DNA from: Candidatus Saganbacteria bacterium
Lineage (GTDB): Bacteria > Margulisbacteria > WOR-1 > O2-12-FULL-45-9
Direction: 5' to 3'
Assembly (NCBI GenBank): GCA_013204645.1
Contig: JABMSE010000112.1
Location: 4 to 64,003, forward strand
DNA: 64,000 bases
Of this stretch, positions 10,463 through 44,549 are shown piece after piece; within the stretch, counting starts at the first letter, position 1; every line of letters starts with the position of its first letter. Under the pieces are notes generated by a model. It was not told the origin of the DNA. It saw only the letters and a list, made by a program, of their open reading frames with translations, and ran no database searches. Position numbers and translations under genes: made by a program.

Positions 10463-11595
10463 GGTTGGTTTTGCCCTACCCCGTCTGCTTTGGACCAGAG
10501 ATTCTGATATTCTAAAACCAGGTTTTTTATGGAACGATTTTTAACAAAAGAATAAGCTGTTTCTATCATCTTATCCGCACTTGGATGGGTTAGATGGAAA
10601 TTAACTTTTTCGGCCAAAGAGCTGGAATTTCCAGCTATTTCAAGCATCTCTTGAGAATGGGGGATTAATTCTAAGTAATCCTTCTTCATAGCATTATCAT
10701 AGATTGCAAAAACTAGACTCTTCTGCGCCATGGCTTCTAATATACCTAAATAACCGGTTACAAAGGCATACTTAAATTGCCTAGCGATTAAAAAGGGATC
10801 CTTTACAAACCCTTTAAACTCAACTTCTAAACCAGTCTCCTCTACCCGCTTTTTAATCTGAGGCATTAAGGGACCGTCCGCACAAATGATTAAGGGAAGC
10901 CGCTTTCCAAATTCATCTCTTAAAATAACCAGCGCTTCAATTATTTCTTTAATACCGGTGTCAAAATTCAGTCTACCAATAAATACGGCGCCCTCTTTTT
11001 TGGGAGCGGATTCTTGTCGGAATAAAATTGATTCGTCAATTCCCCCATAAGTTACTATGTTTGCCCGGGTCCCATACCATTTAACAATAAATTCACCCGC
11101 GCAAATATTACCTCGGGTTAAATATTGGCACAGCTTCCTAATTAAGATTATTTTTTTGCGTGGAGGACACTGACCTTCCCAACCATGAAATGTCATGTAG
11201 TACTCTTTCCAGAAAAGAATAAACCTAAATGGTAGGTACCAGTAATAAAGTGACCCAAAATCATGAAAGTGAATTATATCTGCTGCAAGCAGCAATTTAA
11301 AATGCGTCGCAAAAAACCAATATTTATCCATTATATTAGGATACCTTTTACTCGAGCGTTTCATGCGAAGGATAGTAAAACCGTCTACTTTTTCTTTTTC
11401 AGAAAGTGAGTTCTCTTCATTGTTTTCCGTTACGATAATAAGCTCATTGGTTTTGGCCAAGATTTTGGCAATTTCATGCACGTGCTTTTCCACCCCTCCC
11501 AGAAAGGGGTAAAATCTTGGGCAAATCATCAATATCTTTTTGCTTTTCATTTTGATTTTGCCCCGGACAAAATATCCCGCATTTTCTTTCGCCAA
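10459..11595 (-). CDS. Glycosyltransferase family 4
   Basis: Glyco_trans_4-like N-terminus (KILMICPRFYPFLGGVEKHVHEIAKIL) and a GT4 C-terminal domain. The start is probably the internal Met (MKSKK), given the 49-nt overlap with the upstream gene. Confidence 0.65.
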   Translation of the reverse strand: MAKENAGYFVRGKIKMKSKKILMICPRFYPFLGGVEKHVHEIAKILAKTNELIIVTENNEENSLSEKEKVDGFTILRMKRSSKRYPNIMDKYWFFATHFKLLLAADIIHFHDFGSLYYWYLPFRFILFWKEYYMTFHGWEGQCPPRKKIILIRKLCQYLTRGNICAGEFIVKWYGTRANIVTYGGIDESILFRQESAPKKEGAVFIGRLNFDTGIKEIIEALVILRDEFGKRLPLIICADGPLMPQIKKRVEETGLEVEFKGFVKDPFLIARQFKYAFVTGYLGILEAMAQKSLVFAIYDNAMKKDYLELIPHSQEMLEIAGNSSSLAEKVNFHLTHPSADKMIETAYSFVKNRSIKNLVLEYQNLWSKADGVGQNQP

Positions 11596-12401
11596 CCCAG
11601 ATAGCAGGCCTCTTGTTTGCTTAACTTGGCTTTAGTGTAAATAAAGAAATTACGGTTGAACCAATTGCGAAAGTTTGCCAACTTTATATATTTATCAATT
11701 GTTTTATAATGTTCTAGGTGAATGACCGGCAAGAAATTTAGAGAATTCTGAGTAGCATGGAGGCGATACTTTATTAGGTTCTTATTGATGAGGCCAATTT
11801 TGCTTTTTTCTGCAATCCTAAGCCACATGTCTAAATCAAAGGTGAATTTATACCCCCGATAATCAAACCCGCCGACTGAATCAATTATGTCTTTTCTAAA
11901 CATGGCCGTTGGACACACAAAGAAGCAGGCATGCTTCATCATAAGATTTAAGGTGGTGTTAAAATCGTAAATATTGATTTCGTCAAAAATATCTGGCAGC
12001 TTTGGATCGTCATAGTGACGCCCCGACTGATTGAGGTATTCAACAAAGGCAAAAACCACCCCGACTTCGTGATGTTTATCCATTAGCTTAACTTCTTCTT
12101 CCAAAATTGTTGGGGAATAAATATCATCGGCATGATAGAGTGCTATATATTCACTTGTAGCCAATTCAAGGCATCGGTTCCAGTTTTGCGGACTTCCAAT
12201 GTTTTTATCATTCCTATATAGCTTGATCCTTGGATCTTTTATGGATTCAAGGATTTCAAAAGTCGCATCGGTTGAGCAATTGTCTACAATAACAAACTCA
12301 AAATCCTTATAGCTTTGGTTTAGGATCGAATTAACTGATTCCCCTATATATTTTTCGGTATTGTACACTGGTATACAAACAGAAACCTTAGGCTTTGACA
12401 T
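11547..12401 (-). CDS. Glycosyltransferase family 2
   Basis: [42 protein letters not shown] is a canonical GT2 N-terminal motif, with a DxD present. Confidence 0.7.
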
Positions 12402-13752
12402 TCCCTACAAACTCCTTGATTTTCTCCGTCATATATTTGACTTTATCATCCGTCATCCCAGGATAAACTCCAATCCAAAAAGTATTATTCATAATTAAAT
12501 CCGTGTTAGTAAGCTCCCCAGAAATCCGGTACCCTTTTTTTGCCTTTCGCATTCCATCAAAGGCCGGATGCCGCAGCATATTCCCGGCAAAAAGCATCCG
12601 AGTTTGAATTTTATGTCCTTCTAAAAAATTTACGATTTCCTCGCGACTGAATCCGGCATCTGGTTTTACGGTTAAGAGAAAGCCAAACCAGCTTGGATCC
12701 GAACCGGGAGTTGCGTCACAGAAAATAAACTTATCTGAATACTTATCTAATGCTTTCCTTATAGTTTTGTAGTTCTTCTTTCTGGCAGAAATAAAGCCAG
12801 GTAGCTTATCAAGCTGCGCGCAGCCAATTGCTGCTTGCATGTCCGTAACCTTTAAGTTGAAGCCAAAGTGTGAATAAATGTACTTATGGTCATAGCCAAA
12901 GGGGAGCTCTCCCAGCTGCCATTTAAAGCGCTTTTTGCAGGTATCGTCTTTGCCGCTCGGACACCAGCAATCCCTACCCCAATCGCGGAAGGATTCAACA
13001 ATTCGCTTTAATTTGATATCATTAGTTAGAACCGCACCACCCTCTCCCATGGTCATATGGTGGGGAGGATAGAAGCTGCAAGTAGCCAAATGGCCAAAAG
13101 TACCCGTATATTTTCCCTGGTATTTTGAGCCCAAGGAGTCACAGTTATCTTCTATCAACCAAAGATTATGTTTTTTGCATATTTTTTTTACTTTATCAAT
13201 ATCAAAAGGGTTTCCCAGTGTGTGTGCTAAGATAACCGCTTTGGTTTTTTTGCTTACGGCTTTTTCCAGTTGTTTACAATCAACGTTATAGGAAGGTAGC
13301 GTAACGTCAACAAAAACGGGGATGCACCCATTTTGGATGATTGGTGCAATTGTTGTTGGGAAACCAGCTGCAACTGTTATTACCTCATCGCCTTTTTTTA
13401 GCCTTCTTTTACCCAGCTTAGGAGAGGTTAGCGCTGTGATTGCTAAAAGATTGGCTGACGAGCCTGAATTAGTAAGGCTGCAATATTTAACCCCAATAAA
13501 TTTAGCCAGTCTTTTCTCAAATTCTGCGGCAAACCTTCCAGTAGTTAGCCAAAAATCAAGCGCTGAATCAACCAGATTTATCAACTCTTTTTCATCATAT
13601 ACGCGGCCAGCATAGTTAACCTTGCTCTGTCCAGGAACAAACTTAGGTTCCTTTTTGAGCAGATGAAATCTTTTCACATCCTTTAATATTTTTTTTCTTA
13701 ATTCATCTCTTTGCATAAATCTCCTTTCGTTGGTAAAGTATGGGCATTCCAT
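12388..13752 (-). CDS. ddhC: CDP-6-deoxy-D-xylo-4-hexulose 3-dehydrase (E1; DdhC/RfbH/AscC family)
   Basis: DegT/AHBA-synthase fold. The PLP lysine is replaced by histidine ([13 protein letters not shown]). A [2Fe-2S] motif C-X57-C-X1-C-X7-C is present (NCDSL...[11 protein letters not shown]). The N-terminus resembles RfbH. Confidence 0.75.
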
Positions 13753-14771
13753 AAAACAGTGCGGTAAATCGCGTCCTTTAAGCCAATGGTTTGTTTTAAA
13801 TTAAGTTCAGCTAAAACGCGCCCAACTGCGGGAACATACCGAGAAGGTGGTTGTTGGGAAAGGGGTTGCTTAGCAATTTTAATTTCCATTGGTTTTTTAA
13901 AAACCTTGGCTACAACTTTCGCTAAATCGGAAATAGTGATAGCATCGTCTGCGCCAACGTTATAGGCGCGACATGATTTTCCTTTTAAAAGGATCGTCCA
14001 TAACCAGATAGCCAAATCAGCCGCGTAAAGATAAGATCGATAAGGAGTTCCATCACCATTCACCTTAATAGGTCCGCCTTCCAATCCATCCCGGATAAAG
14101 TTTCCAATGGCATAATGAATATCTAAGGGTAGATAGGGACCAACAAAGACAAAACAGCGAGCAATCTTAGTCTTAAGACCATACTTGCTTGAATAATATG
14201 AACAGAGAAATTCTGCAGCTCGTTTGCTTTCTCCCCAAGCAGAGCCCGGATTAGTTGGGTCAGGTGCTCCGCAATAGTCTTCCAGGGTATGAGTCATATT
14301 AGCTGGCTGTTTACCGTAAACGGCCCCGGAACTGGTTAGAAGAAAGTTTTTCGCCCCGCACTTAACGGCAAAATCTAGGATATGCCGGGTTCCAGCAACC
14401 ACTGTATCAAATTTAGTCAAAGGATCTTCACTATTAAAGGTAGCTCTAGCTGAGGTAGCAGCAGCATGAATGATGTAGGAAAACTCTCCAGGGGGGAAAT
14501 CAAAATCCCTAATGTCTCCGACATGAAACTGGATGGCTGGATTAGATGCCAGGTGTGGCACCTTTTTTACGAATGCGTTAGGGTTTCTGGTTAGAACCAC
14601 GGCGGAGGCGTTAAGATTTAAATTTTTATTTGCCCAGGCAAAACTTTCCAGGAGCCAACAGCCAAAAAAACCAGTTCCACCAGTAATAAACAAGCGCTTT
14701 CCCCGCAGATCTTCCCAAAGGCCCTGGGTGTGTTTTATTATATGGTTCAAGTCATCAGTAAGTGGATTCAT
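13698..14771 (-). CDS. NAD(P)-dependent epimerase/dehydratase (SDR) family, NDP-sugar reductase/epimerase
   Basis: Rossmann motif [16 protein letters not shown] and a YxxxK catalytic region. Its position next to ddhC suggests a CDP-sugar 4-reductase (paratose-synthase/YerF-like). The start is probably an internal Met. Confidence 0.55.
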
Positions 14772-15865
14772 GGTCGATAAAGTTGTCTTTCCTCCCGTTT
14801 GATAAAATCTTCCTTGGTAAATACTTCGTTATAGGGCACTGGCAAAGGCTTTCCATATACTTTTTTGGCCTCATATTCTTCGATAAATTCTCTATCTTCA
14901 GCAATAAAACAGGTGTCACAATATTTGCCAAAAAACTTGATATTTAAGCCCCTGTCAATGATATCTTTCAGGGGTTCTTCAAAAAAGTTCCCTAAAGAAA
15001 CATGGATATAAGGGCACGGCAATACGTCACCATATTTAGTGATCGAAACCATCCTTTTGACCGCTATACACCCCAGGTCAAGGCCATAAGACGGGGTCAA
15101 ATGGGTAAACACATTATATTTGCTCTCCAGCCCCCTTAAATAATCCATGTCATCTTTGTTAATAAGTACATCATAATTACCTTCCCATTCTCCTACAGGT
15201 TTGGCATAGGTAACAAATACCCCTACTCCTTTGCCATTAAGAAACGTCAGAAAATCAACAAATTCCTGTGATCTGATCCTTTGTTTTGTCACGACGGTCT
15301 GAATAATAATGTTCAGACCTGCTTTCTGTGCCGCATCAATAGCTCTTAAGCACCTTTCATGTGATCCTGGTTTGCGCCTGAACGCGTCATGATCTTCCAC
15401 GGAAAGACTGTCAAAACTCAGCTGGACCTTATCTACCCCTATTTCTTTGAGGTGTTTTGCCCTTTTTTCATCTAAATTCCATCCATTGGTATCAGAAGTT
15501 ATGTAAAATTTGGCAGGATCTATGGCTGCGACAATATCATCAAAATCCGGAAATACCAATGGTTCACCGCCAGTGATCACTATATGTGCAAGACCCATTT
15601 CGTCTGCTTGCCGTGCAAGCTCTTTCACGCTTTCAGGGGTAAAAAATCTGTTCGGATCCTTTCCTCTTAATCTGGTTATATCACAATGCTGGCAGGCAAA
15701 ATTGCATTTATAATCATATTGAAATTGAAGAATAGCTATACTTTCTCCATTTTTAATCTTTTCTTCAAATTTCATGATCTTCTGGTAAACATGCGGCTTT
15801 TCATTTTTAAGCAGGTTTCTCTTCTCTTTTTCGCTTGATCTCACCTTTTCTTGCAGACTTGACAT
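14768..15865 (-). CDS. Radical SAM protein with C-terminal auxiliary Cys cluster
   Basis: CNFACQHC (CX3CX2C) radical-SAM motif and the GGEPL SAM-binding motif. Extra cysteines near the C-terminus (CPYIHV..., CDTC) are suggestive of a SPASM/twitch-like domain. Confidence 0.6.
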   Translation of the reverse strand: MSSLQEKVRSSEKEKRNLLKNEKPHVYQKIMKFEEKIKNGESIAILQFQYDYKCNFACQHCDITRLRGKDPNRFFTPESVKELARQADEMGLAHIVITGGEPLVFPDFDDIVAAIDPAKFYITSDTNGWNLDEKRAKHLKEIGVDKVQLSFDSLSVEDHDAFRRKPGSHERCLRAIDAAQKAGLNIIIQTVVTKQRIRSQEFVDFLTFLNGKGVGVFVTYAKPVGEWEGNYDVLINKDDMDYLRGLESKYNVFTHLTPSYGLDLGCIAVKRMVSITKYGDVLPCPYIHVSLGNFFEEPLKDIIDRGLNIKFFGKYCDTCFIAEDREFIEEYEAKKVYGKPLPVPYNEVFTKEDFIKREERQLYRP

Positions 15866-15897: not shown

Positions 15898-17082
15898 TTA
15901 TTCCCTTATTTCCAGCCCAAAATCTCTCAATATAGCAATCTTAATATTTGGATCATAATTTTGCCGTATGATCTTCGTCACTTCATCAGAGTAACTGGCT
16001 GCCATAACAATGACGGCATCAACCGGTTCTTTTTTTAGTGTTTCGGGAGAAACTATAGGGATATGTGTGGCTGGCGTGTATTTTCCCTGCTTAAATGTTG
16101 CCGAATCAACCACATATTTGATCTTACCCGCTAGATTGGCCAAAGCAATAATTGCTAGCGCTTGATGCCCTGCACCCCAGATAGCGACATTTTTATTGCT
16201 AAAACGGCAAAGATATTCTTGGATTTCATTCGTAATCTTAATCTGGTAATCATGAAAATGTGAGAGGTCCAATTTTTTAGTTGCTTTGAGCGAGTCCACC
16301 ACCGAGGAATGAGCAAAAGGTCCTTTCCTAACAACGAAAGAAAGAATGTAGTCATGCCATACCGCATTGCATTCAATAATCTCAAAACCATTAAGTTTTA
16401 AGGCCGTAGTCAATGTATCTTTAGTAAAATAAAATAGATGATCAGAAATAAATTCGGAAAAAAGTTTTTTTTCAACGATCATATCAAAATTAGGTACCTC
16501 AACTAACCCTACCGCTTCATCGGCTAAATTATCGCGGATTCCTCTAAGCGCTGAATTTGGATCAGGTAAATGTTCAAAATAATTCATAATGAAAAAAGCA
16601 GCAAATGGTGCCCTTTTTAGCTGGTAAGTACCACTATCAATAAACCCTTTTGAGACATTTAACCCCTCCTTTTTGCAGAGTTCCACGGATTCTTCTAAAT
16701 GTTCCAGGCCGTAGGCATCGGCACCTGCTTGCTGCATAATAGAAAGATATTCTCCGCGACCACAGCCTATTTCCAGAACCTTTTTGCCTTTGAGTGAATA
16801 TTTATCCACAAATTCTCTAAATTGCCCAACGCGAAAGCTTTTCATTTCATCGGAAAAAGCTGCTGCGCGTATAACGTCTTTATAATAAGGAACTGGAGGA
16901 CTGCTTAATTGTACTAGCCCACAACCAGAGCATTGGTAGATAGTGAGACTTTCTCCGTGCTCGTTTTTGAGATTGCCTTTCTCTGGTAGAAACTGGGCGG
17001 CTTTGGGCATATTGTCAAATTGCAGCAAAGGCCCTTTAAAAAAAACATTGCCGCAAACTCTGCATTTTTCTTGTTTTTTCAT
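15898..17082 (-). CDS. Second zinc-ribbon SAM-dependent methyltransferase (sugar C-methyltransferase family paralog)
   Basis: CRVCGN...CSGCG zinc ribbon, with an EIGCGRGEYL SAM motif. The architecture matches the 8029..9282 gene. Confidence 0.55.
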   Translation of the reverse strand: MKKQEKCRVCGNVFFKGPLLQFDNMPKAAQFLPEKGNLKNEHGESLTIYQCSGCGLVQLSSPPVPYYKDVIRAAAFSDEMKSFRVGQFREFVDKYSLKGKKVLEIGCGRGEYLSIMQQAGADAYGLEHLEESVELCKKEGLNVSKGFIDSGTYQLKRAPFAAFFIMNYFEHLPDPNSALRGIRDNLADEAVGLVEVPNFDMIVEKKLFSEFISDHLFYFTKDTLTTALKLNGFEIIECNAVWHDYILSFVVRKGPFAHSSVVDSLKATKKLDLSHFHDYQIKITNEIQEYLCRFSNKNVAIWGAGHQALAIIALANLAGKIKYVVDSATFKQGKYTPATHIPIVSPETLKKEPVDAVIVMAASYSDEVTKIIRQNYDPNIKIAILRDFGLEIRE

Positions 17083-17105: not shown

Positions 17106-18908
17106 TTAATCTATATTTTCTTTGGAGATTGCCATATTATTCTTCAGTTCTTGCTCATCTAAGAAAGGCCACAGGTCTTCCAGAGGTTTTGATACCATTG
17201 AACCATCAGAAAGTTTCATTGATGACAGCCTTGGGGCCATTTGCAGGTCAGGATCGATCATTACTTCACAAACAACCGGGCCTTCCATCTTAAGAACATT
17301 AAGAACATCTTCTCGTAAATTATTCTGGTGCGAGATCTTTGCTGTTTTAATCCTATAGGCAGAGGCGATCTTTATGGTGTCTGGCAGAGTTAATCCGCTT
17401 GAAGGGTCACAACAGACCAGGCGTCCATCAAAAAATCGCTTATGCGTATTCCTGATGGCTGCGTAGCCGTAATTATTAAGAACAAAAAGTTTTATCGGGA
17501 TATTCAGCCTCTTTAACGTTTCCAGCTCCTGAATGTTGTGCTGGAGGCCTCCATCGCCAATAAGACAAACTGTTCTTTTTTTACCGCTGGCAAGACAAGC
17601 ACCTATACTTTGCGGAAGGCCAAAGCCCATTGAGCCCAAACCGGGCGAATTAAGGACCCGTTGCCCTTTTTTAACCTTAAAGGCCTGTGGAGTTATTTCA
17701 GCAGCGCTTCCCGAGCTTTCCGGCACAAGCACATCATCTGCGGTGAGCAACTCTGAAAGCGTTTCGACCAGGGCATATGTGTTCACGTATTTCGCCGGCT
17801 TTAAATATTCCTTGAGTATCACGGGATATTTTGTTTTCCATTCCCTGCATTTTGCTATCCAGGCTGACCTGTCTTTTGGTTTTACAAGGGCCAATTTACT
17901 GATGAATTCCTCTAAAAATGCTTTAGCGTCACATATCAATGGGATATCAATTTTCGTTTTAATTTTTCTGATCTCATTTTCATCAATATCTACAATAACT
18001 TTCCTGGCACCGCGCGCAAAGTTTTCATAACTATGCCCTACCTGGGGACGGTCCAGACGAGCACCAATAACTAATATAAGATCAGCATTTTGTTGGACGA
18101 AATTAGCAGCCCTTGAAGCAATAGATCCTGGCCTGCCAAAATAGAGATCGCTGTCTTCAGGTAAAATATCCATAAATCTCCAGGTCGACAACACGGGTAT
18201 TTTTAATGTTTCAATAACTTTTAAAAATGCATCATTTGCTCCGGCCAGACGTATGCCCCTACCCGCCAGGATCACAGGACGCTGGGCATTGTTAAAAAGA
18301 GATATGATATCTTCTGTCAAAGAATGAAAATTGTTGTTTTTTCGCTTTTCTTTTGAAGGAGTAAATCCTTTTAATTTATTCTTATCAATTATTGCTGCCT
18401 GCACATCTAACGGAATGTCTATCCATACAGGTCCGGGACGTCCGCTATTAGCAAGATAAACAGCTTTTTCCAGATGGTAGCGGATATTTTCAGGTTCAAG
18501 CACTGTAACAGCGTATTTAGTGATCGGCTTGACCAGTGAAACGATATCCACTTCCTGGATGCCTATCTGGCGAACGCCTGTCCCGGAAAGCAGGTCTTTT
18601 CGTTTGGTCTGGCCGGATAAGAGCAACAATGGCGTGGAATCGATCCAAGCGGCAGCTACTCCTGTTATTGTATTGGTAGCGCCAGGACCGGTGGTAACAA
18701 GCGCCGCTGCAATATTGCCATTGTATTGGGCATAACCGTCCGCAGCGATCACTGCTGCCTGTTCATGAAGGCACCCAATAAACTCTATCTTCTTGTTGGT
18801 GCCTATGGAATCGACCAGGTGCATACAGCCTCCGCCAGGCAGCATAAAAACGTGCTTTACTTTAAGTTCAGTAATAAAGTTAATAACATAATCTGATAAT
18901 TTCATCAT
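17106..18908 (-). CDS. Thiamine-pyrophosphate-dependent enzyme (acetolactate-synthase-like; YerE-like candidate sugar C-branching enzyme)
   Basis: N-terminal TPP_enzyme_N region (HVFMLPGGGCMHLVDSIG) and a C-terminal TPP-binding GDG...N motif (IGDGGLQHNIQELETL). 600 aa. Lies in a CDP-dideoxyhexose context. Confidence 0.65.
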   Translation of the reverse strand: MMKLSDYVINFITELKVKHVFMLPGGGCMHLVDSIGTNKKIEFIGCLHEQAAVIAADGYAQYNGNIAAALVTTGPGATNTITGVAAAWIDSTPLLLLSGQTKRKDLLSGTGVRQIGIQEVDIVSLVKPITKYAVTVLEPENIRYHLEKAVYLANSGRPGPVWIDIPLDVQAAIIDKNKLKGFTPSKEKRKNNNFHSLTEDIISLFNNAQRPVILAGRGIRLAGANDAFLKVIETLKIPVLSTWRFMDILPEDSDLYFGRPGSIASRAANFVQQNADLILVIGARLDRPQVGHSYENFARGARKVIVDIDENEIRKIKTKIDIPLICDAKAFLEEFISKLALVKPKDRSAWIAKCREWKTKYPVILKEYLKPAKYVNTYALVETLSELLTADDVLVPESSGSAAEITPQAFKVKKGQRVLNSPGLGSMGFGLPQSIGACLASGKKRTVCLIGDGGLQHNIQELETLKRLNIPIKLFVLNNYGYAAIRNTHKRFFDGRLVCCDPSSGLTLPDTIKIASAYRIKTAKISHQNNLREDVLNVLKMEGPVVCEVMIDPDLQMAPRLSSMKLSDGSMVSKPLEDLWPFLDEQELKNNMAISKENID

Positions 18909-19480
18909 TAAGAAATCCCTGCTAAGGCCTCTTTGAGCGTCATTTTATTTTTATTCCATGGCCTTGGTATTACAATGCCTTTTACCCCTGCATTTTTAGC
19001 CAATGATACATTATCCGAATTGTCTTCTACCAACAGATCAACTTTTTGTATCCATTTCAAGTAATCACCCTTATCATTATCATATTGCGGTATTTGCTCT
19101 CCGGCTCTCTTTGAAGGAACAAAGTGGAATGTCCTGATCCAAGGGCCAAAATTCCTTATCACCCACTGGGCTGAAAGATGAGCCGCGCTAAGCGGAACCG
19201 CTGTCAGGGCAATATGGCGGAAATTATTCCCATTTTCTCTGAACCATCCCAATACTTCTTTTATAGGAGCCATCTGCTCATACTTTCCCGATAATCGGAA
19301 CTCATCCAAAGATCGCGAATATTCTTCTATATCAGTATTTAACAGCCTGTTTGGAGGATTTTCACTGATATTCTCATAGTTTATTTTACAGGCCGGATGG
19401 TCCGGTTGCCATTTCTCTTTAAACCAGGTCAGCATTAAATCATTTAGGACGTCGTCTACGTCCCAAGCAATGGTTTTCAC
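18908..19480 (-). CDS. HAD-superfamily hydrolase/phosphatase
   Basis: N-terminal motif I, WDVDDVL (DxDxV). ~190 aa, nucleotidase-like HAD fold. Confidence 0.45.
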   Translation of the reverse strand: MKTIAWDVDDVLNDLMLTWFKEKWQPDHPACKINYENISENPPNRLLNTDIEEYSRSLDEFRLSGKYEQMAPIKEVLGWFRENGNNFRHIALTAVPLSAAHLSAQWVIRNFGPWIRTFHFVPSKRAGEQIPQYDNDKGDYLKWIQKVDLLVEDNSDNVSLAKNAGVKGIVIPRPWNKNKMTLKEALAGIS

Positions 19481-19491
19481 CTAGTCCCTCC

Positions 19492-21003
19492 TTAAGCATC
19501 CAGCCAATAAGATATGGCTGTTTTACGCTGCTTATTTTTTGCAATTTCGGGATCGGTGTAGAATGAATCATCCCTATGATGGGTGGATGAAATTTCCTCA
19601 ATTATCGCCCCGGTTTTACTGCTAAAAATGTGTTTGGTGCCCCTTTCTACAACCACAATATCCCCAGGGTTACCTCTGCTCTTCTTTCCATCCATCACAA
19701 ACTCAACATCGCCATGTAAGACATGGAAGGTTTCCTCTTTTTTATGGTGATATTGTTCTGGATGGCTTTGTCCTGGTACCAAGACAATCAACTTTTTGCA
19801 GTATTCCCGATTAATAAAATTAATTAAAGTACAACCTACTTCGCTGAAACGATCAACCCCATAATGGTGAGATATTTCAAGATCAAGCATCCCTGGAACA
19901 TTTACCTGACCATCCTGCAGAACTTTCTTGACCTGCTTAACAATGCTATAGATCTTTTCGCGATTATCGGTTCGACTAACCGAACAAAAGAGTACTGGTT
20001 TATTAGCTGCGATGTCCTCCTTGGCCGTGAACTCAATATATTTTGAAAAATCATTAGCTGTAATCTGATTGTCAATGGTTGGAATAGCCAGAAAGGTATC
20101 AGCTAAAGTAATGTGTTCACCTTTTTTTAGGGCTCTCTTTGCAAAAATCCCTCGCCTTAGTGCTTTTAAACTAGCAGTTTCGGCAGCGGGGAATTCTAAT
20201 CTCTTGTTCTCTACTCCACACATTTCGTAGGCTTGCTTGGCGCTCTTTAACCATTCCTTTACTTGAGCTGGGGTACTGGAATAGGCGTTGATTTTATATT
20301 TATCAGTTGGGACAGCAACATGTCTTTCAAGAATGCTGGCCCCTTTAGCAATTGCCATTTTAGCCGCAGCAAAATTATCAGGATTCTCGTGGGTTGAATA
20401 GCCAATAGCAACATCGGGATAGCGTTCTTTAAATAAGCTAATCTGATTAAGTTCAAGGCTTTCATTAGGCGTTGGGTAAGCGGCTACACAATGCATCAGT
20501 GCAAACATTTTGTCTCGATGCTTAAAAAATGACACTACCTTGTCAATATCTTCCAAGGAGGCCCCTGCAGTTGAAGCAATGATTGGCTTATTGGTTTTGG
20601 CAATCCGTTCTAAAAGTGGCCAATCGGAAAAAGAACAACTAGCGATTTTAATAATATCAAAATTATGCTTTTCAATCAGATCAACCGAGGCCTCATCAAA
20701 TGGAGTACAAACAGCAACAAATCCGGCCTTAATAACCTCCTCTTTTAAGCGTAAAAAATCAGCTCGAGAAAGCTTGGTCTCGCTGAAACGTTTAACATAT
20801 TTAATGTCCTTTCGATCTTTAAACTCCGGGTGGATGAATGTATCAAGTTGACGATATTGGAACTTAAAAGCGAATTTAAAATCGAATCCAGCACAGACAT
20901 CTTTTATCTCATTGATTACTTTTAATCCGTGTTCAACATCTCCCATGTGGTTGTTAGCCATCTCAAAAATGAACAATTTATTGAAGCGATTCCTTTTCAT
21001 CAT
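19492..21003 (-). CDS. NeuB-family (sialic/nonulosonic acid synthase-like) PEP-condensing enzyme fused to a C-terminal cupin domain
   Basis: N-terminal FIFEMANNHMGDVEHGLKVINE resembles NeuB/PseI. The TIM-barrel and SAF regions are present. The C-terminal ~110 aa show a cupin pattern (QSHPEQYHHKKEETFHVLHGDVEFVMDG). Confidence 0.6.
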   Translation of the reverse strand: MMKRNRFNKLFIFEMANNHMGDVEHGLKVINEIKDVCAGFDFKFAFKFQYRQLDTFIHPEFKDRKDIKYVKRFSETKLSRADFLRLKEEVIKAGFVAVCTPFDEASVDLIEKHNFDIIKIASCSFSDWPLLERIAKTNKPIIASTAGASLEDIDKVVSFFKHRDKMFALMHCVAAYPTPNESLELNQISLFKERYPDVAIGYSTHENPDNFAAAKMAIAKGASILERHVAVPTDKYKINAYSSTPAQVKEWLKSAKQAYEMCGVENKRLEFPAAETASLKALRRGIFAKRALKKGEHITLADTFLAIPTIDNQITANDFSKYIEFTAKEDIAANKPVLFCSVSRTDNREKIYSIVKQVKKVLQDGQVNVPGMLDLEISHHYGVDRFSEVGCTLINFINREYCKKLIVLVPGQSHPEQYHHKKEETFHVLHGDVEFVMDGKKSRGNPGDIVVVERGTKHIFSSKTGAIIEEISSTHHRDDSFYTDPEIAKNKQRKTAISYWLDA

Positions 21004-21761
21004 AATACCTCCATATAATTATCTCGGACTGCCCGAGTATTTTTGTGAATTCGTTTGGCTTGTTTTTCTGCTGTATTCCTTTCTTTTAAGGTTTGGTAAA
21101 TTGCTGCATCAAAATGAACCAGTAATAGGCGATCGGCTTTAGCTTTTTTGGCGATTTTAGCTGCTGTAGTTGGATCAAGATGTGGCCATCCTTCTTCTTG
21201 TATCCCTACTTTCATGGCACACTCGGCAATTAATAGATTTGCATTCTTAGCTAATTTAGCTGCGTTTGGACACGGACCTGTATCTGGAACATAAGCAAGA
21301 ATCTTGTTGCCAAACCGCAAACGAAAACCCAGACAAGGTACAGGATGCCTGAGCACGAGAGCGTTTTCCATGAAAGGAAGGTGTTTGTTTCTACCAGCTA
21401 TTTCAATAATGCGCGTTTTAAATGGTAGCTTGTTTAAGGCCAAGGTGAAATCTTTATTTACAATCGTTTTTAATATCTTTTTGCTACCTTTACGAATACA
21501 AATATTGAGTCCTTGAGGAAATCTAAACTTTGCCAAAATGTGCAAACCAATTATATGATCAAGATGAAAATGGCTTAAAAACAGATAAATTGGCTTATTG
21601 CTTTTGATATATTGATCAAGCTTATAAATTCCGTTGCCAGCATCGAGCACCACGTATTCATTGGCCGTTTCAATTAGAATGCAGATAGTGTTGCCGGTAG
21701 CTGTGTCATACCAACCATTGGTTCCCAGGAAAATGATTTTTATTTTATCTTGTTTTTTCAT
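21000..21761 (-). CDS. MBL-fold metallo-hydrolase
   Basis: HxHxDH motif (LSHFHLDHIIGLH) and a downstream His/Asp ligand pattern. Confidence 0.6.
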   Translation of the reverse strand: MKKQDKIKIIFLGTNGWYDTATGNTICILIETANEYVVLDAGNGIYKLDQYIKSNKPIYLFLSHFHLDHIIGLHILAKFRFPQGLNICIRKGSKKILKTIVNKDFTLALNKLPFKTRIIEIAGRNKHLPFMENALVLRHPVPCLGFRLRFGNKILAYVPDTGPCPNAAKLAKNANLLIAECAMKVGIQEEGWPHLDPTTAAKIAKKAKADRLLLVHFDAAIYQTLKERNTAEKQAKRIHKNTRAVRDNYMEVL

Positions 21762-22824
21762 AGTTTTTTATTTGGGCAAAACAGGTGTTTCTCAAATTTT
21801 TCTTCTCCTTATAAGCTTTTGTCCATTCAACAATTTCATCTAAGGTTTGGTTAATATTCCATTTTGGTTCCCATCCCAGAACTTTTCTGGCCTTTGACGA
21901 GTCCAAACTTAGATACGTGGTCTCATGAGGATGATTCCCCTTAGCGATTTCAAAGGAGGCTGTGTTTCCCCACTTTTTACAGAGTTTATTAACAACCCAT
22001 TCCACTGTCCTTGCATCCTGATTATTCGGACCAAAATTCCAAGCACCAGCATATTGTAAACCATGCTTGTAAAGCCTTTCGGCCAGCATTAAGTAGCCAG
22101 AAAGTGGCTCTAAAACATGCTGCCAGGGCCTAACTGCTTTGGGGTTTCGCACCCGAATTTTTCGTCCCTTCAAAATAGCCCTAACAAAGTCTGGTACTAA
22201 TCGGTCATTGGCCCAATCACCACCGCCAATTACATTTCCGGCCCGGGCCGAAGCTACATTCATGCCATATGAACAACGATAAGCAGTGGTTACTATTTCA
22301 GAGCAAGCTTTGCTGCTCGAATATGGATCATATCCCCCCAAAGGCTCATCTTCACGATAACCTCTCCTCTGCTCCCTATTTTCATAAACCTTATCGGTTG
22401 TAACGTTAAGTATGGCCTTGACCCTTCCTTGCTGTCTTGCTATCTCTAACAGATTAACTGTTCCCATTACATTGGTAGAATAGGTTTCGACTGGAATTTT
22501 ATAGGAATCACGCACAATTGGCTGTGCTGCCATATGGATAATGATTTCGGGCCGAGCTTTTATAATTGCTTGACTTAACGCTTTTTTATCCCTTATATCA
22601 GCTATAGTGGAATTTACAAGCTGATCAATCTGACAAAGGTTATATAAATTTGGCTTAGTATGCGGAACGAGAGCGTAGCCCGCAACCTTCGCTCCTAATA
22701 AATAAAGCCACAGGCTAAGCCATGAACCCTTAAAGCCTGTATGGCCGGTTATAAAAACTCTTTTGTTTTTCCAAAACTTATTCATTAAGCCCAAACCTTC
22801 CATGGAGCTTTGCCCGCGTTCCAA
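21745..22824 (-). CDS. ddhB: CDP-glucose 4,6-dehydratase
   Basis: FWKNKRVFITGHTGFKGSWLSLWL is a hallmark of the RfbG/DdhB N-terminus. SDR fold with YxxxK. Confidence 0.75.
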   Translation of the reverse strand: MERGQSSMEGLGLMNKFWKNKRVFITGHTGFKGSWLSLWLYLLGAKVAGYALVPHTKPNLYNLCQIDQLVNSTIADIRDKKALSQAIIKARPEIIIHMAAQPIVRDSYKIPVETYSTNVMGTVNLLEIARQQGRVKAILNVTTDKVYENREQRRGYREDEPLGGYDPYSSSKACSEIVTTAYRCSYGMNVASARAGNVIGGGDWANDRLVPDFVRAILKGRKIRVRNPKAVRPWQHVLEPLSGYLMLAERLYKHGLQYAGAWNFGPNNQDARTVEWVVNKLCKKWGNTASFEIAKGNHPHETTYLSLDSSKARKVLGWEPKWNINQTLDEIVEWTKAYKEKKNLRNTCFAQIKNYEKTR

Positions 22825-23570
22825 AGCTCATTAAGTAGTAAGAAGTCGCGGTAGGTATCCATGCAGTGCCAATAATTGTCCAAAGGATACATAGCCATTT
22901 GCTGCTTTTTGACCAGTGTTTCCAAGGGCTCTCGTTCTAGAGTACAATCTTCATCAACAGAGAGATAATCAAAAAGCTCGCGTTTAAACACAAAAAAACC
23001 ACCGTTTATAAATCCTTCCGATACTGAAGGTTTTTCGTTAAAAGTGGTTACCAGGGTGTCGTGGACTGAAAGTTCGCCAAACCTGGAAGGTGGTCGCACT
23101 CCGGTCATGGTTGCAATTTTGCCATGAGAACGATGAAAGGCTATAAGAGCATTAATATCAATATTAGCTACTCCATCCCCATAGGTGAGCAAAAATTCCT
23201 TGTCATTTCCAATATATGGCTTAACTTGGGCAACTCTGCTTCCGGTCATGGCCTTTTGGCCGGTATTTATAAAAGTAATATTCCAGTCTTCAAGATTAGC
23301 TTTGCTGTGATGAATAATACGTTCAGATTTAGAGCGCAGACTCAAAGTGAAATCATTAGATAATTCTTCAAACTTTAAAAAATAATCTTTTATCATGTCT
23401 CCTTTATATCCCAGACAAAGAATGAAATCTTTGTGTCCAAAATGGGAATAGGTCTTCATGATATGCCATAAAATAGGCATCCCTCCAACCGGCACCAAAG
23501 GTTTGGGACGATATTCGGTTTCTTCCTTTAATCGCGTACCTTGACCACCGCAAAGTATAACTACTTTCAT
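22785..23570 (-). CDS. ddhA: Glucose-1-phosphate cytidylyltransferase
   Basis: MKVVILCGGQGTRLKEETEYRPKPLVPVGGMPILWHIM is a canonical RfbF/DdhA N-terminus. Confidence 0.8.
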   Translation of the reverse strand: MKVVILCGGQGTRLKEETEYRPKPLVPVGGMPILWHIMKTYSHFGHKDFILCLGYKGDMIKDYFLKFEELSNDFTLSLRSKSERIIHHSKANLEDWNITFINTGQKAMTGSRVAQVKPYIGNDKEFLLTYGDGVANIDINALIAFHRSHGKIATMTGVRPPSRFGELSVHDTLVTTFNEKPSVSEGFINGGFFVFKRELFDYLSVDEDCTLEREPLETLVKKQQMAMYPLDNYWHCMDTYRDFLLLNELWNAGKAPWKVWA

Positions 23571-24625: not shown

Positions 24626-25801
24626 TTAATCTTTCTTTAAACAATTACCCAGTAATTTCAGCTCTGCTTGACTTAGCTCAGGATAGTTTCCAAAGTAAAA
24701 ACCACAATCATGAATAAAATCTGCTCCTGGCAGATTAAAATGCCTTTTAACGTATTTAGGAAAGAAGGGTTGCCGCTGTAGGTTCCCTGCAATCATGGGA
24801 CGAATTTCCACGCCAGCTTTTGAAAATCGCATGCAATATTTCTCTTTTAGCTCTGGAGTTTTACAAATAACCGGGAAAGCAAAACTAGAAAGCCGGGAAA
24901 GGTGGGCCGAATCTAGTTCGACTAGATTTGGATTATCTCTTGCAATGCTGGCCAAGAATTTATAATTAGCTTCTCGTTTTGCAATATTCTTTTCTATAAA
25001 CTGTAGTTGATAACGGCCTAAAAAACCCGTAATCTCTGTTGGCCGAAAATTAAAGCCTAAATCGTAAAAAGCATATTTCGCTTCAAAATCACTTCTGATT
25101 CCAAATTTCTTTCTCCATTTTGCTTGTTGGGAAGGAGAAAGGTTGCGGTCCCAACCGTTTGCTCGAACAATGCGAAGCATTTCGGAAAGTTCAGGGTCAT
25201 CAGTGCAGACCATTCCTCCCTCAATAGAGGACATATGGTGGGCTACAAAAAAGGAAAAAGTTGCTGCCAGCCCGAAATTACCTGCTTTACCAGATGGCAA
25301 TTCCGTTCCCAGTGACTCGCAGTTGTCTTCCAGTAAAATTATCCCCCGCTGCCTGCAGATTTCTCTTATCTTTTCTAGATCACCGGCAAACCCTAATGCA
25401 TTAGTGATGAACACAGCTTGCAATCTTTCCGATTCCAAAGTTTTTTCTAGGTTACCAGACATGACATTTAATGTACGCAGATCACAATCAATGGGTATTG
25501 GCGAAAGCCCTAATTGGATGATTGGCATAACGTTAGTTGACCAAGTCAGCGCTGAAAAGCCAATTTTATCTCCATCCTTTAGTCGCCCTATGTTCTTTAG
25601 CGACTGCAACAGCGCCAAATTAGCACTGCCTCCACTATTGACCAAAATAGCTTCATCGCGCTCTTGAAACTTAGAGAAGGCTTTCTCAAATTGTGAACAC
25701 TGCGTACCCATGCTGAAACGGGAGGATTGCAATATGAACTCTGCCAACGCTTTTCTTGTTTCCTCCTCATTTAAAAAAGTGGTTTTCATTAAGGGGATCA
25801 T
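24626..25801 (-). CDS. DegT/DnrJ/EryC1/StrS-family PLP-dependent NDP-sugar aminotransferase
   Basis: ILVNSGGSANLALL, plus a conserved Lys-containing region (the SFFVAHHMSSIEGG context) and a C-terminal domain typical of sugar aminotransferases. Confidence 0.7.
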   Translation of the reverse strand: MIPLMKTTFLNEEETRKALAEFILQSSRFSMGTQCSQFEKAFSKFQERDEAILVNSGGSANLALLQSLKNIGRLKDGDKIGFSALTWSTNVMPIIQLGLSPIPIDCDLRTLNVMSGNLEKTLESERLQAVFITNALGFAGDLEKIREICRQRGIILLEDNCESLGTELPSGKAGNFGLAATFSFFVAHHMSSIEGGMVCTDDPELSEMLRIVRANGWDRNLSPSQQAKWRKKFGIRSDFEAKYAFYDLGFNFRPTEITGFLGRYQLQFIEKNIAKREANYKFLASIARDNPNLVELDSAHLSRLSSFAFPVICKTPELKEKYCMRFSKAGVEIRPMIAGNLQRQPFFPKYVKRHFNLPGADFIHDCGFYFGNYPELSQAELKLLGNCLKKD

Positions 25802-26742
25802 CCTTTTTTCGCCTCCTCTTTTTTCTGGCGATAGAGGCTTATCATTTCATCTAATCCTTGACTTAAGGATATCTGGGGAGCAAAGCCCATGCTGCTGATT
25901 TTAGAAATATCCAGACATTTTTTGAGCATTCCATCTGGTTTTGATTTGTCCCATAAAATCTCTCCCCTGAACCCGGTTTTTTGAGCAATGAGTTCTGCCA
26001 GTTCCTTAATAGAAATATCCCTTCCCCACCCCACATTTATAATATCGCTGGAGTTAAGCTTATCCATTAAAAAAAGAAGGGCTCGGGCAAGATCATCAAC
26101 GTGCATAAACTCACGTCGCGCAACCCCTGTCCCCCAAAGTGTAATTTGATTTTTTTGTTCGTCGACGGCATCCACAAAGCGTTTTACCAGGGCCGATAGA
26201 ACGTGACTTTTAGCCAGGTCAAAATGGTCATTGGGGCCATATAAATTGCAGGGCATCGGACAAATGCTTTTTAGGCCGTATTGGAAATTAAGGTATTTGG
26301 CTAATTTTAAGCCGGCTATCTTTGCTAGAGCATAACCCTCATTAGTTGGTTCCAGTAATCCGGTCATCAGATATTCTTCTTTCATAGGTTGGGGACACTC
26401 TTTTGGATAAATACATGAACTTCCCAGAACACATACCTTCTTAACTTTAGACTGTAGAGCTTGGTATAAAACATTATTTTGTATCATGAGATTGTCATAT
26501 AAGAAATCCGCTGGGTAATCTTGGTTGGCTTTTATCCCCCCTACCCGGGCGGCGGCGAGAAGAACATAGGCAGGATTTTCCTTTTTAAAAAAATGCTCTA
26601 CACTTTCTTTTATGCGAAGGTCTATTTCGTCTATATCCACAGCAATAATGTCTTTATAACCCTCCTTAGTCAGTAATCGTAAAATGGCTGAGCCTAACAT
26701 CCCCTTAGCACCCAAGACACAGACTTTTTCCTCTTTCCTCAT
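25798..26742 (-). CDS. GDP-L-fucose synthase-like NAD-dependent epimerase/reductase (fcl paralog)
   Basis: VCVLGAKGMLGSAILRLL Rossmann motif and an overall Fcl/WcaG-like pattern (...NLYGPNDHFD...). Confidence 0.6.
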   Translation of the reverse strand: MRKEEKVCVLGAKGMLGSAILRLLTKEGYKDIIAVDIDEIDLRIKESVEHFFKKENPAYVLLAAARVGGIKANQDYPADFLYDNLMIQNNVLYQALQSKVKKVCVLGSSCIYPKECPQPMKEEYLMTGLLEPTNEGYALAKIAGLKLAKYLNFQYGLKSICPMPCNLYGPNDHFDLAKSHVLSALVKRFVDAVDEQKNQITLWGTGVARREFMHVDDLARALLFLMDKLNSSDIINVGWGRDISIKELAELIAQKTGFRGEILWDKSKPDGMLKKCLDISKISSMGFAPQISLSQGLDEMISLYRQKKEEAKKG

Positions 26743-26761
26743 AGCAACGCTCCCTTGTTCA

Positions 26762-28202
26762 TTAAAGAGACTCCTTTAGCCATTTTCGAGCAAACAGATA
26801 TTGCCCTAGCATAAAATATGCTCCTAAAATAAAAAGAAAAACAAAATTCCAATAATAAGCCCTAAGGCTCATGGCAAAATAAAATACAAAAACTAGAAGC
26901 ATCGGCAAACAAAATAAAGAGGCTTTAAGGGTTCTTTGTAAAGGGAATTTTATGGGTACGATCTTTTTTATTTCTGCGCGCAAAACAACCAGACCAATCA
27001 AGCCGCCTAAAACTAGGGCTGATGCTACCCCTACGTATAGATTCCAGCCGGGCAAGTAATAGATGAGTCCAACCACCACGACTGCTGAAATCAGACCGGG
27101 TAGGATAAGAGATTTGGTTTTATATTCAGCATGTGCGGCCAAAGAATAAACCGACGAAATAATGCGTAAGGCTTCTACCAGCGCACCAAAAAAGATTAAA
27201 TAGCTAAAAGGCCAGTAAAGAGAAGCAACTAAAATTCTGGATAAGAATATGCTGCTGCAGCCAATAAAAACAAGCATCATTAGGAGGGCAGGTAAAAAGG
27301 CCCCCCCCAAAGCATTCCAAGCAGCAACCCGTTTATCAACCTCTGGAGAACTAATATTGTTATAATAAATAGGATGGTAGAACTGGTTAAAGAGGGTTTC
27401 AAAAGCCACGGTTAATTGCATCCCTATGTTGAGATTGATAAAAAATATACCTAAGGTTTCTAGCCCAAATTTATATTGAAGGATAAAACGATAACCTTGA
27501 GTTTGTACCCAATAGAAAAGTACGGCTAAAGATAGGGGCAGCGAAAAGTTTAAGGCACCTCGAAACTTGGCGAAAGAGAAATTTATTTTTGTTTCTTCGG
27601 GTACCTCTGATTGGCGGCTAATCTTAAAGAGAATATATAATGCTGCCACAGCAATAATAAATTGGGCAATAAAACCGCCTAGCATCCAGAACTCTGCTGT
27701 CCTAGCAAAAGCTAGGGTAAGGAGCGCAGAAGATAATATACCTATCCAGCCGGCTAGATTGCTTAGGATTACAAAGGTAAAACGTCGCTTGAAGAGATTA
27801 ATATATCCTATAAAAGAAGAAAAGAGGGCAGCAACAAATATCCCTAAGAAAATAATGGTAGCAAACCAAAGGTTCGTAGCCCCTTCAGCAAGCGGAATAA
27901 ATAATTTTAGCAAAAATAATACAAAAAGTGCAAAAAGTGCAACCAAAAAAACATAAATAATATAATAGATCAGATTTATTTTTAGTAATCCCTTTTTTTC
28001 CCAGCCGATAATCTGTCGGTTAACGTAGTTTCCTATCGGGCTAATCATAAAGAGGCCAAAAAATCCCAAGATGGTCATGAAAATTGCCATGCGTCCGATC
28101 TCAGCGGGTAAGAGTATGGTGGTTAAAACGCGTACGATGACAAATGCTACCAGCATGGAAGCAATTCTTCCCACAACTAAAACAAAGGCGTCGAATTGAT
28201 TT

Positions 28203-28210
<8 letters not shown>
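26762..28210 (-). CDS. Wzx-type O-unit flippase (MOP superfamily polysaccharide biosynthesis protein)
   Basis: 482 aa with ~12-14 hydrophobic helices and an N-terminal PolyS_synth-like pattern. Confidence 0.55.
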
Positions 28211-30198
<1,988 letters not shown>

Positions 30199-30207
30199 TT
30201 ATTGAAA

Positions 30208-44537: not shown

Positions 44538-44549
44538 TTGTGTTGACCC

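Follow-up and report, generated by a model that had tools for sequence, protein, structure and literature searches.

What is the role of a sialic acid synthase-type enzyme that carries a cupin at its C-terminus and is encoded among genes for cytidine diphosphate (CDP)-activated sugars? This question is raised by a 64-kb contig of a 'Candidatus Saganbacteria' metagenome-assembled genome (MAG), which was analysed over its whole length and is referred to here as the window. The contig encodes a 503-residue protein (NQT30031.1) in which a NeuB-type phosphoenolpyruvate (PEP)-condensing domain is fused to a cupin. From its sequence, the protein is proposed to be a bifunctional enzyme that combines a sugar isomerase with a PEP-dependent 3-deoxy-2-ulosonate synthase. 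The reading favoured here, with moderate confidence, is that this fusion, together with a phosphatase of the haloacid dehalogenase (HAD) superfamily, would replace the aldolase of known acyl-branched sugar pathways, supplying a polyhydroxylated 4-hydroxy-2-keto acid that a thiamine diphosphate (ThDP)-dependent enzyme would graft onto C4 of a CDP-sugar. The product would probably be an acyl-branched CDP-sugar of the yersiniose, erwiniose and caryophyllose class, and not a sialic-acid-like end product.

The fused architecture had been proposed in a first-pass annotation made from the sequence alone, on the basis of an N-terminal MANNHMGD motif and a C-terminal HPEQYHH...HVLHGDVEFVMDG stretch, and both motifs are confirmed in the open reading frame (ORF) of the fusion, which, like those of the neighbouring HAD and hydrolase, lies at the position given in that annotation. 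A Pfam search places NeuB at residues 45-265 (E 1.5e-44; 152.7 bits against a cut-off of 22.1) and Cupin_2 at residues 406-463 (E 4.3e-11), while SAF (284-337) and Lyx_isomer are matched weakly; the SAF family PF08666 is recorded for many homologs of the protein. Among structures in the PDB, 3g8r aligns to residues 9-342 (E 1.8e-121, 54% identity), and the D-lyxose isomerase 2y0o aligns to residues 362-489, with an E of 2e-10 over both halves. The AlphaFold2 model of the fusion has a mean predicted local distance difference test score of 92.9, and Foldseek searches with its two parts agree with the domain search. The N-terminal ~335 residues match 3g8r with a template modelling (TM) score of 0.94, and also NeuB (1xuu) and PseI (8h2c), while the C-terminal ~166 residues match 2y0o (TM 0.70, root-mean-square deviation (rmsd) 2.0 Å), 7nzq, 3kmh and 4q0u. 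The top matches of the cupin are all aldose-ketose isomerases acting on lyxose, mannose or ribose, in keeping with the isomerase or epimerase role suggested in the first pass. The possibility that the cupin is a misread SAF domain can be ruled out, as the Pfam, 3g8r and 2y0o alignments place it in addition to a complete NeuB-SAF unit. The synthase is also non-canonical, as had been suggested: it scores 153.9 bits against the NeuB equivalog TIGR03569 (cut-off 399.65) and 139.3 bits against the PseI equivalog TIGR03586 (cut-off 340.25), far under both.

Both parts of the protein retain conserved, putatively catalytic residues. In the NeuB domain, H205, H228, K119, S122, S144, T100 and Y176 do not vary among 119 homologs and line up with the GSxE/KIGS, STG, SDH, ERH and TPF motifs of NeuB. 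Following published NeuB structures, H205 and H228 are taken to be the metal-binding histidines, and K119, S122, S144, T100 and Y176 to form the PEP site. In the cupin domain, H419, K422, E424, H458 and E470 are invariant in the same set. The cupin shares with lyxose isomerases the motif series YCxK...PGQ...PE..H...K.ETF...H.F...E.SST...D, and its fold is related to those of the D-lyxose/D-mannose isomerases of B. subtilis (YdaE, 2y0o), Thermofilum (7nzo-q) and E. coli (Z5688, 3kmh/3mpb) with TM scores of 0.66-0.70 and an rmsd of 2.0 Å. It differs from them in being a fused C-terminal domain, in having Gln for the first His of the HxH motif with another His four residues upstream, and in that its substrate may be phosphorylated. 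With NeuB, PseI and LegI (N. meningitidis 1xuu, C. jejuni PseI 8h2c) the fusion has in common the TIM barrel and SAF domain, the two metal histidines and the PEP-binding Lys, Ser and Thr; it departs from them in its ~25% identity, its extra cupin, a near-obligate linkage to a ThDP enzyme and the lack of NeuA, NeuC, PseB-H or Leg partners.

The fusion is not a peculiarity of the Saganbacteria. The best 120 database matches are all NeuB plus Cupin_2 proteins of ~500 residues, with 59-82% identity and spread over many phyla, and when each GTDB species is represented by a single genome, fusion loci are confirmed in at least 558 species; the gene cassette described below probably recurs in hundreds of bacteria and archaea. 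Carriers are found in Nitrospirota, Desulfobacterota, Planctomycetota, Verrucomicrobiota, Cyanobacteria, Bacteroidota, Proteobacteria and Patescibacteria, as well as in archaea including Methanoperedens and Altiarchaeota. Database names for the protein vary, from spore coat protein through NeuB or N-acetylneuraminate synthase family to, most recently, D-lyxose/D-mannose family sugar isomerase. The structure 3g8r, a structural genomics entry from Chromobacterium violaceum deposited as 'probable spore coat polysaccharide biosynthesis protein E', belongs to the same family. It might be regarded as an unfused relative, but the crystallised chain ('SpsE', 350 residues) is a truncated construct, corresponding to the N-terminal two-thirds of a 495-residue NeuB-SAF-cupin protein (AAQ61551.1). 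The native C. violaceum gene lies at positions 10001-11488 of the locus retrieved from that species (L088) and is part of the same gene cassette as in the window.

A function for the fusion is suggested by its neighbours. In the window, the gene belongs to a tightly packed, co-directional operon on the (-) strand, in which adjacent genes overlap or sit at most 32 nucleotides apart, in the order RfbF-RfbG-MBL-NeuB/cupin-HAD-ThDP enzyme-C-methyltransferase-radical SAM-SDR-RfbH, where MBL denotes a metallo-beta-lactamase-fold hydrolase, SAM S-adenosylmethionine and SDR a short-chain dehydrogenase/reductase (Table 1). The three genes for CDP-4-keto-3,6-dideoxyglucose, RfbF, RfbG and RfbH, all score above their NCBIfam equivalog cut-offs. 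The surrounding 33 kb form a polysaccharide locus in which GDP-fucose genes accompany those for glycosyltransferases, Wzy, Wzz and an exporter, and a second group of glycosyltransferases with a flippase continues to 44.5 kb of the window.

The dominant signal in this context is the linkage to the ThDP enzyme. The best PDB match of this enzyme is 8rph (JanthE; E 1.8e-126, 36% identity), followed by 5ahk (E 1.1e-85), which is presumably the PpYerE entry, whereas true acetolactate synthases (ALS) match at 2.4e-74 or worse; it also falls under every ALS equivalog cut-off. By similarity, it is thus a YerE-like carboligase rather than an ALS. JanthE has been described as a YerE-like carboligase whose physiological substrates are given as unidentified (PMC12188165), and the YerE-like enzymes for which structures have been solved are JanthE and PpYerE (PMC12247030). 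It could be argued that, as a member of the ALS-like decarboxylase superfamily, the enzyme acts in the manner of an ALS or a simple decarboxylase, with the ulosonic acid serving as acceptor or being decarboxylated to an aldehyde, to give a small molecule unrelated to the CDP-sugar. This is highly improbable, given that the enzyme is nearer to YerE-like enzymes than to ALS, that RfbF, RfbG and RfbH are co-located in most loci, and that an activated sugar is required by a polysaccharide locus such as this, which encodes Wzx, Wzy, Wzz and glycosyltransferases.

The association between the fusion and the ThDP enzyme is conserved far beyond the window. The window proteins were compared by tblastn with 80 NeuB-cupin loci, each from a different GTDB species (L006-L085), of which 60, flanked on either side by 3 kb or more, served for counts within 2.5 kb, and 45 served for counts within 10 kb. 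In 56 of 60 loci, a homolog of the ThDP enzyme lies within 2.5 kb of the NeuB-cupin gene, and the corresponding count for 10 kb is 44 of 45. RfbH is found within 2.5 kb in 40/60 and within 10 kb in 37/45, directly upstream of NeuB-cupin in most related loci, and RfbF within 10 kb in 32/45. An unbiased clustering of the neighbouring ORFs in the 80 loci yields the recurrent order RfbF-RfbG-RfbH-NeuB/cupin-(HAD)-ThDP enzyme-(NUDIX, C-methyltransferase, B12-radical SAM, radical SAM/SPASM, SDR). In this clustering, the C-methyltransferase is present in at least 26/80 loci and the radical SAM/SPASM protein in at least 34/80, and at least one SDR, from three clusters, occurs in 37 of 50 full loci; as ORF calling in GC-rich loci gave spurious antisense ORFs (L043, L049, L059), counts from ORF clusters are lower bounds, and those from tblastn are preferred. 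The cassette is also present in five further loci (L001-L005), including three from metagenomes or MAGs for which Pfam annotation had been precomputed.

The HAD phosphatase is a frequent but not constant member of this set. It lies directly 3' of the fusion gene in 42 of the 80 loci and within 2.5 kb of it in 37/60, and several loci without this distant NT5C-like HAD have a HAD_2-type phosphatase, so the phosphatase partnership proposed in the first pass is supported. The protein gives no Pfam match above threshold, with just a faint NT5C hit, and nothing in the PDB even at E values up to 1. Nevertheless, conservation across the family reaches at least 93% for its motif I, DxDDV at residues 7-11, and for T93, K137 and D153 (D7, D9, D10, K137 and D153 in 43/43 sequences, V11 in 42/43 and T93 in 41/43).

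Such a phosphatase recalls the pairs of Neu5Ac-9-P (N-acetylneuraminic acid 9-phosphate) or KDN-9-P (2-keto-3-deoxynonulosonic acid 9-phosphate) synthase and phosphatase. The first-pass annotation envisaged a non-canonical ulosonic-acid or related keto-sugar branch. In a fuller form of this view, a free ulosonic acid, KDN-like or octulosonic, would be made by a phosphorylated route and would itself be activated and built into the polysaccharide, independently of the CDP-sugar and ThDP genes; the conserved catalytic residues of the NeuB domain and the resemblance of the cupin to mannose and lyxose isomerases speak for it as well. The non-canonical synthase has stood, but the stand-alone branch is now an unlikely explanation. 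No CTP_transf_3/NeuA/KdsB protein is present in the 64-kb window or in the clusters that recur around the fusion gene in the 80 loci, and the adjacency to the ThDP enzyme (56/60), the linkage to RfbF, RfbG and RfbH and the exclusivity with aldolase genes described below would be left without explanation. As had been stated at the outset, neither NeuA/KdsB-type (CTP_transf_3) nor NeuC-like epimerase proteins are found among all window ORFs of at least 150 residues, and the same applies to the PseB-H and Leg precursor enzymes. One CTP_transf_like ORF (47406-47879) was considered as a NeuA candidate; it adjoins an RsmD-like gene and looks like CoaD. From the ThDP and RfbF/G/H context, it is probable instead that the ulosonic acid is a donor substrate for C-branching of the CDP-sugar.

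The MBL-fold hydrolase, which had been named as flanking the synthase, is not a conserved partner. A homolog is found in just two of the 60 loci (L014 and L028, from a Planctomycetales MAG and a Flavobacteriales MAG, 51-56% identity), which leads us to reject it as a core pathway partner and to regard it as an accessory gene. The protein gives a partial RNase Z profile match and resembles RNase Z, PhnP and Apyc1. Its gene overlaps RfbG by 17 nucleotides and the fusion gene by 4, and it directly follows RfbG in the window and in both other loci, that is, in three unrelated genomes; a role tied specifically to the CDP-sugar steps is possible.

A NUDIX protein of ~170-208 residues, encoded downstream of the ThDP gene in 29/80 loci (e.g., L022, L036 and L076) and also in C. 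violaceum (14481-15107 of L088), is absent from the window. The presence of NUDIX (29/80), HAD (42/80) and sometimes MBL proteins in the cassette would suit a scheme resembling legionaminic and pseudaminic acid biosynthesis, in which these hydrolases free a modified 3,6-dideoxyhexose from CDP, the cupin isomerises it and the NeuB domain condenses it with PEP to a new deoxy-nonulosonic acid; hydrolysis of the nucleoside diphosphate sugar before NeuB condensation is indeed the rule for bacterial nonulosonic acids. We consider this very unlikely, since its product would require a cytidine monophosphate (CMP)-transferase, of which none is present, and since it leaves the most conserved partner, the ThDP enzyme, without a role; moreover, NUDIX is missing from the window and MBL from nearly all loci.

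An indication of what the fusion does for the ThDP enzyme comes from loci in which other genes take its place. In the JanthE locus of Janthinobacterium sp. HH01 (L086), the gene order is RfbF-RfbG-RfbH-JanthE-SDR-(BphJ-like dehydrogenase)-(BphI-like aldolase)-SDR, and a Pseudomonas relative has a similar layout. This arrangement is that of an erwiniose-type cluster and suggests that the donor is of the 4-hydroxy-2-oxovalerate type and that the acceptor is CDP-4-keto-3,6-dideoxyglucose. Eighty JanthE-type metagenomic loci were fetched, of which 47 have enough flank for donor-gene counts and 40 for RfbF/G/H. The BphI/BphJ-type aldolase-dehydrogenase pair is present in 44/47 and RfbF/G/H in 36-37/40, while NeuB-cupin or HAD is found in none of the 47. 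Conversely, the BphI/BphJ pair is found in none of the 80 NeuB-cupin loci and is absent from the window. Aldolases of the HpaI and citrate-lyase types are not among the recurrent neighbour clusters, although no searches were made with their own queries. The aldolase pair and NeuB-cupin are thus mutually exclusive, and the same scaffold holds either one or the other beside the ThDP gene.

Such an exchange fits with what is known of acyl-branched sugars. NeuB-type products are 3-deoxy-2-ulosonic acids, i.e., 4-hydroxy-2-keto acids, and such a product would fit the role of ThDP donor because this is the class of compounds that YerE-type enzymes prefer. It has been established that ErwE, MMAR_2332 and MyGE, which are of the YerE type, use gamma-hydroxy alpha-keto acid donors of C4-C8, which come from a pyruvate aldolase encoded next door (PMC9306805; PMC12247030). 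The acceptor is CDP-4-keto-3,6-dideoxy-D-glucose, and a reductase follows, leading to erwiniose, caryophyllose and gastriose (Steitz et al. 2022, PMC9306805). The NeuB-cupin cassette has in common with the pathways of yersiniose (YerE/YerF), erwiniose (ErwE/F/I/J), caryophyllose (MMAR_2331/2332) and gastriose (MyGE/MygI) the RfbF/G/H genes, a YerE-like ThDP enzyme and an SDR (PMC9306805). In both cases, a gene for an enzyme forming a 4-hydroxy-2-keto acid, established or proposed, stands beside the ThDP gene. On one hand, the acyl-branched pathways obtain the donor from a pyruvate aldolase (BphI-, HpaI- or citrate-lyase-like), sometimes with an acetaldehyde dehydrogenase; on the other hand, the cassette encodes a PEP-dependent synthase-isomerase fusion, usually with a HAD, as well as additional C-methyltransferase, radical SAM and NUDIX tailoring genes. 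A PEP-dependent enzyme in the aldolase slot implies that the donors are longer and polyhydroxylated and that they originate from sugar phosphates.

A pathway can be proposed on this basis, in which we infer both the succession of reactions and what the aldose and the keto acid are. Together with an E3 reductase whose gene lies elsewhere, RfbF, RfbG and RfbH would produce CDP-4-keto-3,6-dideoxy-D-glucose. In parallel, the cupin would convert a ketose, probably a sugar phosphate, into the matching aldose, probably of lyxo or manno configuration, which the NeuB domain would condense with PEP to a polyhydroxylated 3-deoxy-2-ulosonic acid or its phosphate, that is, a 4-hydroxy-2-keto acid. The HAD would then strip the phosphate from this product. 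The YerE-like enzyme would decarboxylate the keto acid and attach the acyl-anion equivalent so formed to the CDP-sugar at its C4 ketone, after which the SDR would reduce the branch carbonyl and the C-methyltransferase and radical SAM enzyme would tailor the product. Finally, a glycosyltransferase would use the sugar, and no CMP-transferase would be needed because the product remains CDP-activated. The first half of this scheme follows the same logic as the KDN-9-P or Neu5Ac-9-P synthase and HAD phosphatase pairs and the pathway of 3-deoxy-D-manno-octulosonic acid (Kdo; KdsD, KdsA, KdsC), namely ketose-phosphate isomerisation, PEP condensation and dephosphorylation by a HAD. It differs from the Kdo pathway in employing a cupin instead of a SIS isomerase, a NeuB-type instead of a KdsA-type synthase and an NT5C-like HAD instead of one of the KdsC/C0 type, and in lacking KdsB/NeuA. 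In a more specific version, which is put forward only tentatively, a C8-C9 ulosonic acid (Kdo- or KDN-like) made from a central sugar phosphate and PEP would be grafted by the YerE-like enzyme onto a CDP-4-keto-3,6-dideoxyhexose, to give a branched monosaccharide of 13-14 carbons tailored by radical SAM and methyltransferase enzymes, and such a 'super-branched' class of CDP-sugars would be found in at least 558 species.

The composition of the loci also bears on where the fusion acts relative to the ThDP enzyme. The ThDP enzymes of loci with the HAD have 57.9% identity to the window enzyme, and those of loci without it 48.1%. No such drop is seen for NeuB-cupin (59.0 vs 58.0%) or RfbH (59.0 vs 57.3%). 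A decrease confined to the ThDP enzyme would be expected if what this enzyme recognises is the compound that the HAD step yields. Two sub-types of the cassette can be distinguished among the 80 loci: in the first, the NT5C-like HAD lies between the NeuB-cupin and ThDP genes; in the second, the ThDP gene abuts NeuB-cupin and belongs to a more divergent subclade (~48% vs ~58%), often with a HAD_2 phosphatase farther downstream. The opposite order of events is conceivable: the ThDP enzyme would install a short hydroxyacyl branch, the cupin would turn the resulting ketol into an aldehyde, and the NeuB domain would add three carbons from PEP on the CDP-sugar itself. This order accounts for the fusion of an isomerase to an aldehyde-requiring synthase, as the products of ThDP carboligation are ketols; it likewise needs no CMP-transferase and fits the synteny data equally well. 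It is nonetheless improbable, since it offers no role for the HAD phosphatase encoded between the two genes and leaves the co-variation of the ThDP enzyme with the HAD without explanation. Furthermore, the ligands of known lyxose-isomerase cupins and NeuB enzymes are small open-chain sugars and not nucleotide sugars, and since the fusion takes the place of the aldolase pair, it is likely to have a comparable role, upstream of the ThDP step. As a separate observation on ThDP enzymes, one NeuB-cupin locus (L005, 2460-4483) encodes a split ThDP pair of the E1_dh/transketolase type besides the YerE-like enzyme; this type is a second class of ThDP enzymes for which sugar branching has been proposed in the literature.

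Several observations weigh against the donor-supply pathway and have to be set beside the evidence for it. At the level of the protein, the cupin in the window has Gln (Q417) where the HxH motif begins with His. Position 417 is His in some homologs, and H414, which is at least 90% conserved, is Asn where 417 is His; the nearby His414 may stand in for the missing residue. In addition, E134 and N184 of meningococcal NeuB, which line its N-acetylmannosamine site, correspond to Ser124 and Ala174 in the fusion, and their replacement suggests an aldehyde substrate other than that of NeuB. When the protein is aligned to meningococcal NeuB by phmmer, no gaps are placed in the first 100 residues; the K-x-Q motif (K47/Q49 vs K53/Q55) is probably misplaced there, and no weight is given to the alignment at these two positions. 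Characterised D-lyxose isomerases use free sugars, not phosphorylated ones. At the level of the loci, four of the 60 NeuB-cupin loci have no ThDP gene nearby, and about one third have no recognisable phosphatase within 8 kb, a figure affected by imperfect ORF calling in GC-rich loci. A homolog of the E3 reductase that partners RfbH is found neither in the window nor in the 80 NeuB-cupin loci. This gene is also missing beside JanthE, which makes its absence not diagnostic, and it is found in only 6/40 JanthE-type loci. Finally, no known glycan structure of a carrier organism is tied to the cassette.

The YerE-type branching scheme is already known, while a NeuB-type synthase-isomerase as donor supplier is not described in the literature searched. 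That search, which excluded the cluster survey of Krug et al. 2024, found no paper that connects NeuB to acyl-branched sugars or to fusion with a cupin, and a large phylogeny paper on nonulosonic acid synthases does not mention cupins. The survey of Krug et al. is reportedly an in-silico study of more than 200 YerE-like clusters. If the proposed pathway is correct, a function would be provided for a very large and highly conserved protein family (~60% identity across phyla), one domain of which was solved in 2009 (3g8r) without a function, and the 'unifying scheme' for acyl-branched sugars would gain a second, PEP-dependent donor route. The sialic-acid-synthase fold would have a new role, in supplying donors for ThDP chemistry rather than a glycan end unit, and NeuB-cupin genes should then not be counted as sialic or nonulosonic acid capacity in genome surveys. 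Unusually long polyhydroxylated branches would be predicted in the surface glycans of many environmental bacteria, archaea and Chromobacterium, and the cassette would represent a natural source of functionalised chiral keto-acid donors for ThDP biocatalysis. The hypothesis is open to direct testing in C. violaceum, which is cultured and tractable.

Table 1. Genes and domains of the NeuB-cupin operon in the window, with the evidence for each assignment
Feature	Position	Strand	Evidence
RfbF, glucose-1-phosphate cytidylyltransferase (to CDP-glucose)	22785..23570	(-)	NCBIfam TIGR02623, 328.7 bits vs cut-off 300.25
RfbG, CDP-glucose 4,6-dehydratase	21745..22824	(-)	NCBIfam TIGR02622, 492.5 bits vs cut-off 278.45
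MBL-fold hydrolase (RNase Z / PhnP / Apyc1-like phosphodiesterase type), 253 residues	21000..21761	(-)	Pfam Lactamase_B_2, E 1.1e-15
NeuB-SAF-cupin fusion, 503 residues, NQT30031.1	19492..21003	(-)	Pfam, PDB, AlphaFold2 and Foldseek
NeuB TIM-barrel and SAF part of the fusion, residues ~9-342	19978..20979	(-)	3g8r match
Cupin of D-lyxose/D-mannose isomerase type in the fusion, residues ~362-489	19537..19920	(-)	2y0o match
HAD-superfamily phosphatase (distant NT5C-like), 190 residues	18908..19480	(-)	Catalytic motifs
YerE-like ThDP-dependent carboligase, 600 residues, GDG motif	17106..18908	(-)	Pfam TPP_enzyme_N, _M, _C
Sugar C-methyltransferase-like tailoring enzyme	15898..17082	(-)	Pfam Methyltransf_23, _14, _13
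Radical SAM/SPASM tailoring enzyme	14768..15865	(-)	Pfam Radical_SAM and SPASM
SDR, candidate YerF-like reductase of the acyl branch	13698..14771	(-)	Pfam Epimerase
RfbH (E1), CDP-6-deoxy-4-keto-glucose 3-dehydrase	12388..13752	(-)	NCBIfam NF011936, 756.4 bits vs cut-off 423

Further sugar genes lie in the same polysaccharide locus. One deoxysugar module on the (-) strand comprises a TylC3-like C-methyltransferase (8029-9282), an SDR resembling nucleoside diphosphate-hexose dehydratases (7085-8032) and an aminoglycoside-N-acetyltransferase-like protein (6186-7088). A second module (25798-31224, (-) strand) encodes a guanosine diphosphate (GDP)-mannose 4,6-dehydratase (30208-31224), two GDP-fucose-synthase-like SDRs and a GT10 fucosyltransferase-like protein (28203-29264). 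Farther along the window, an RmlB-like nucleoside diphosphate-glucose 4,6-dehydratase gene (~44517-45518, (-) strand), which follows an RmlA-like nucleotidyltransferase gene (45515-46234), has an in-frame stop at 44898-44900 in place of the Tyr found in the 'LP.YGDG' motif of relatives, and the frame stays open past it. Among the flagellar genes, the FliG ORF (53132-53620, (-) strand) encodes 162 residues that cover the N-terminal and middle domains; no C-terminal domain is found in frame, and the ORF may be truncated. Similarly, flgI, for the flagellar P-ring (57312-58571, (-) strand), appears as two ORFs split by a single in-frame TAA at 57879-57881, which could reflect a pseudogene, strain heterogeneity or an error in the MAG assembly.

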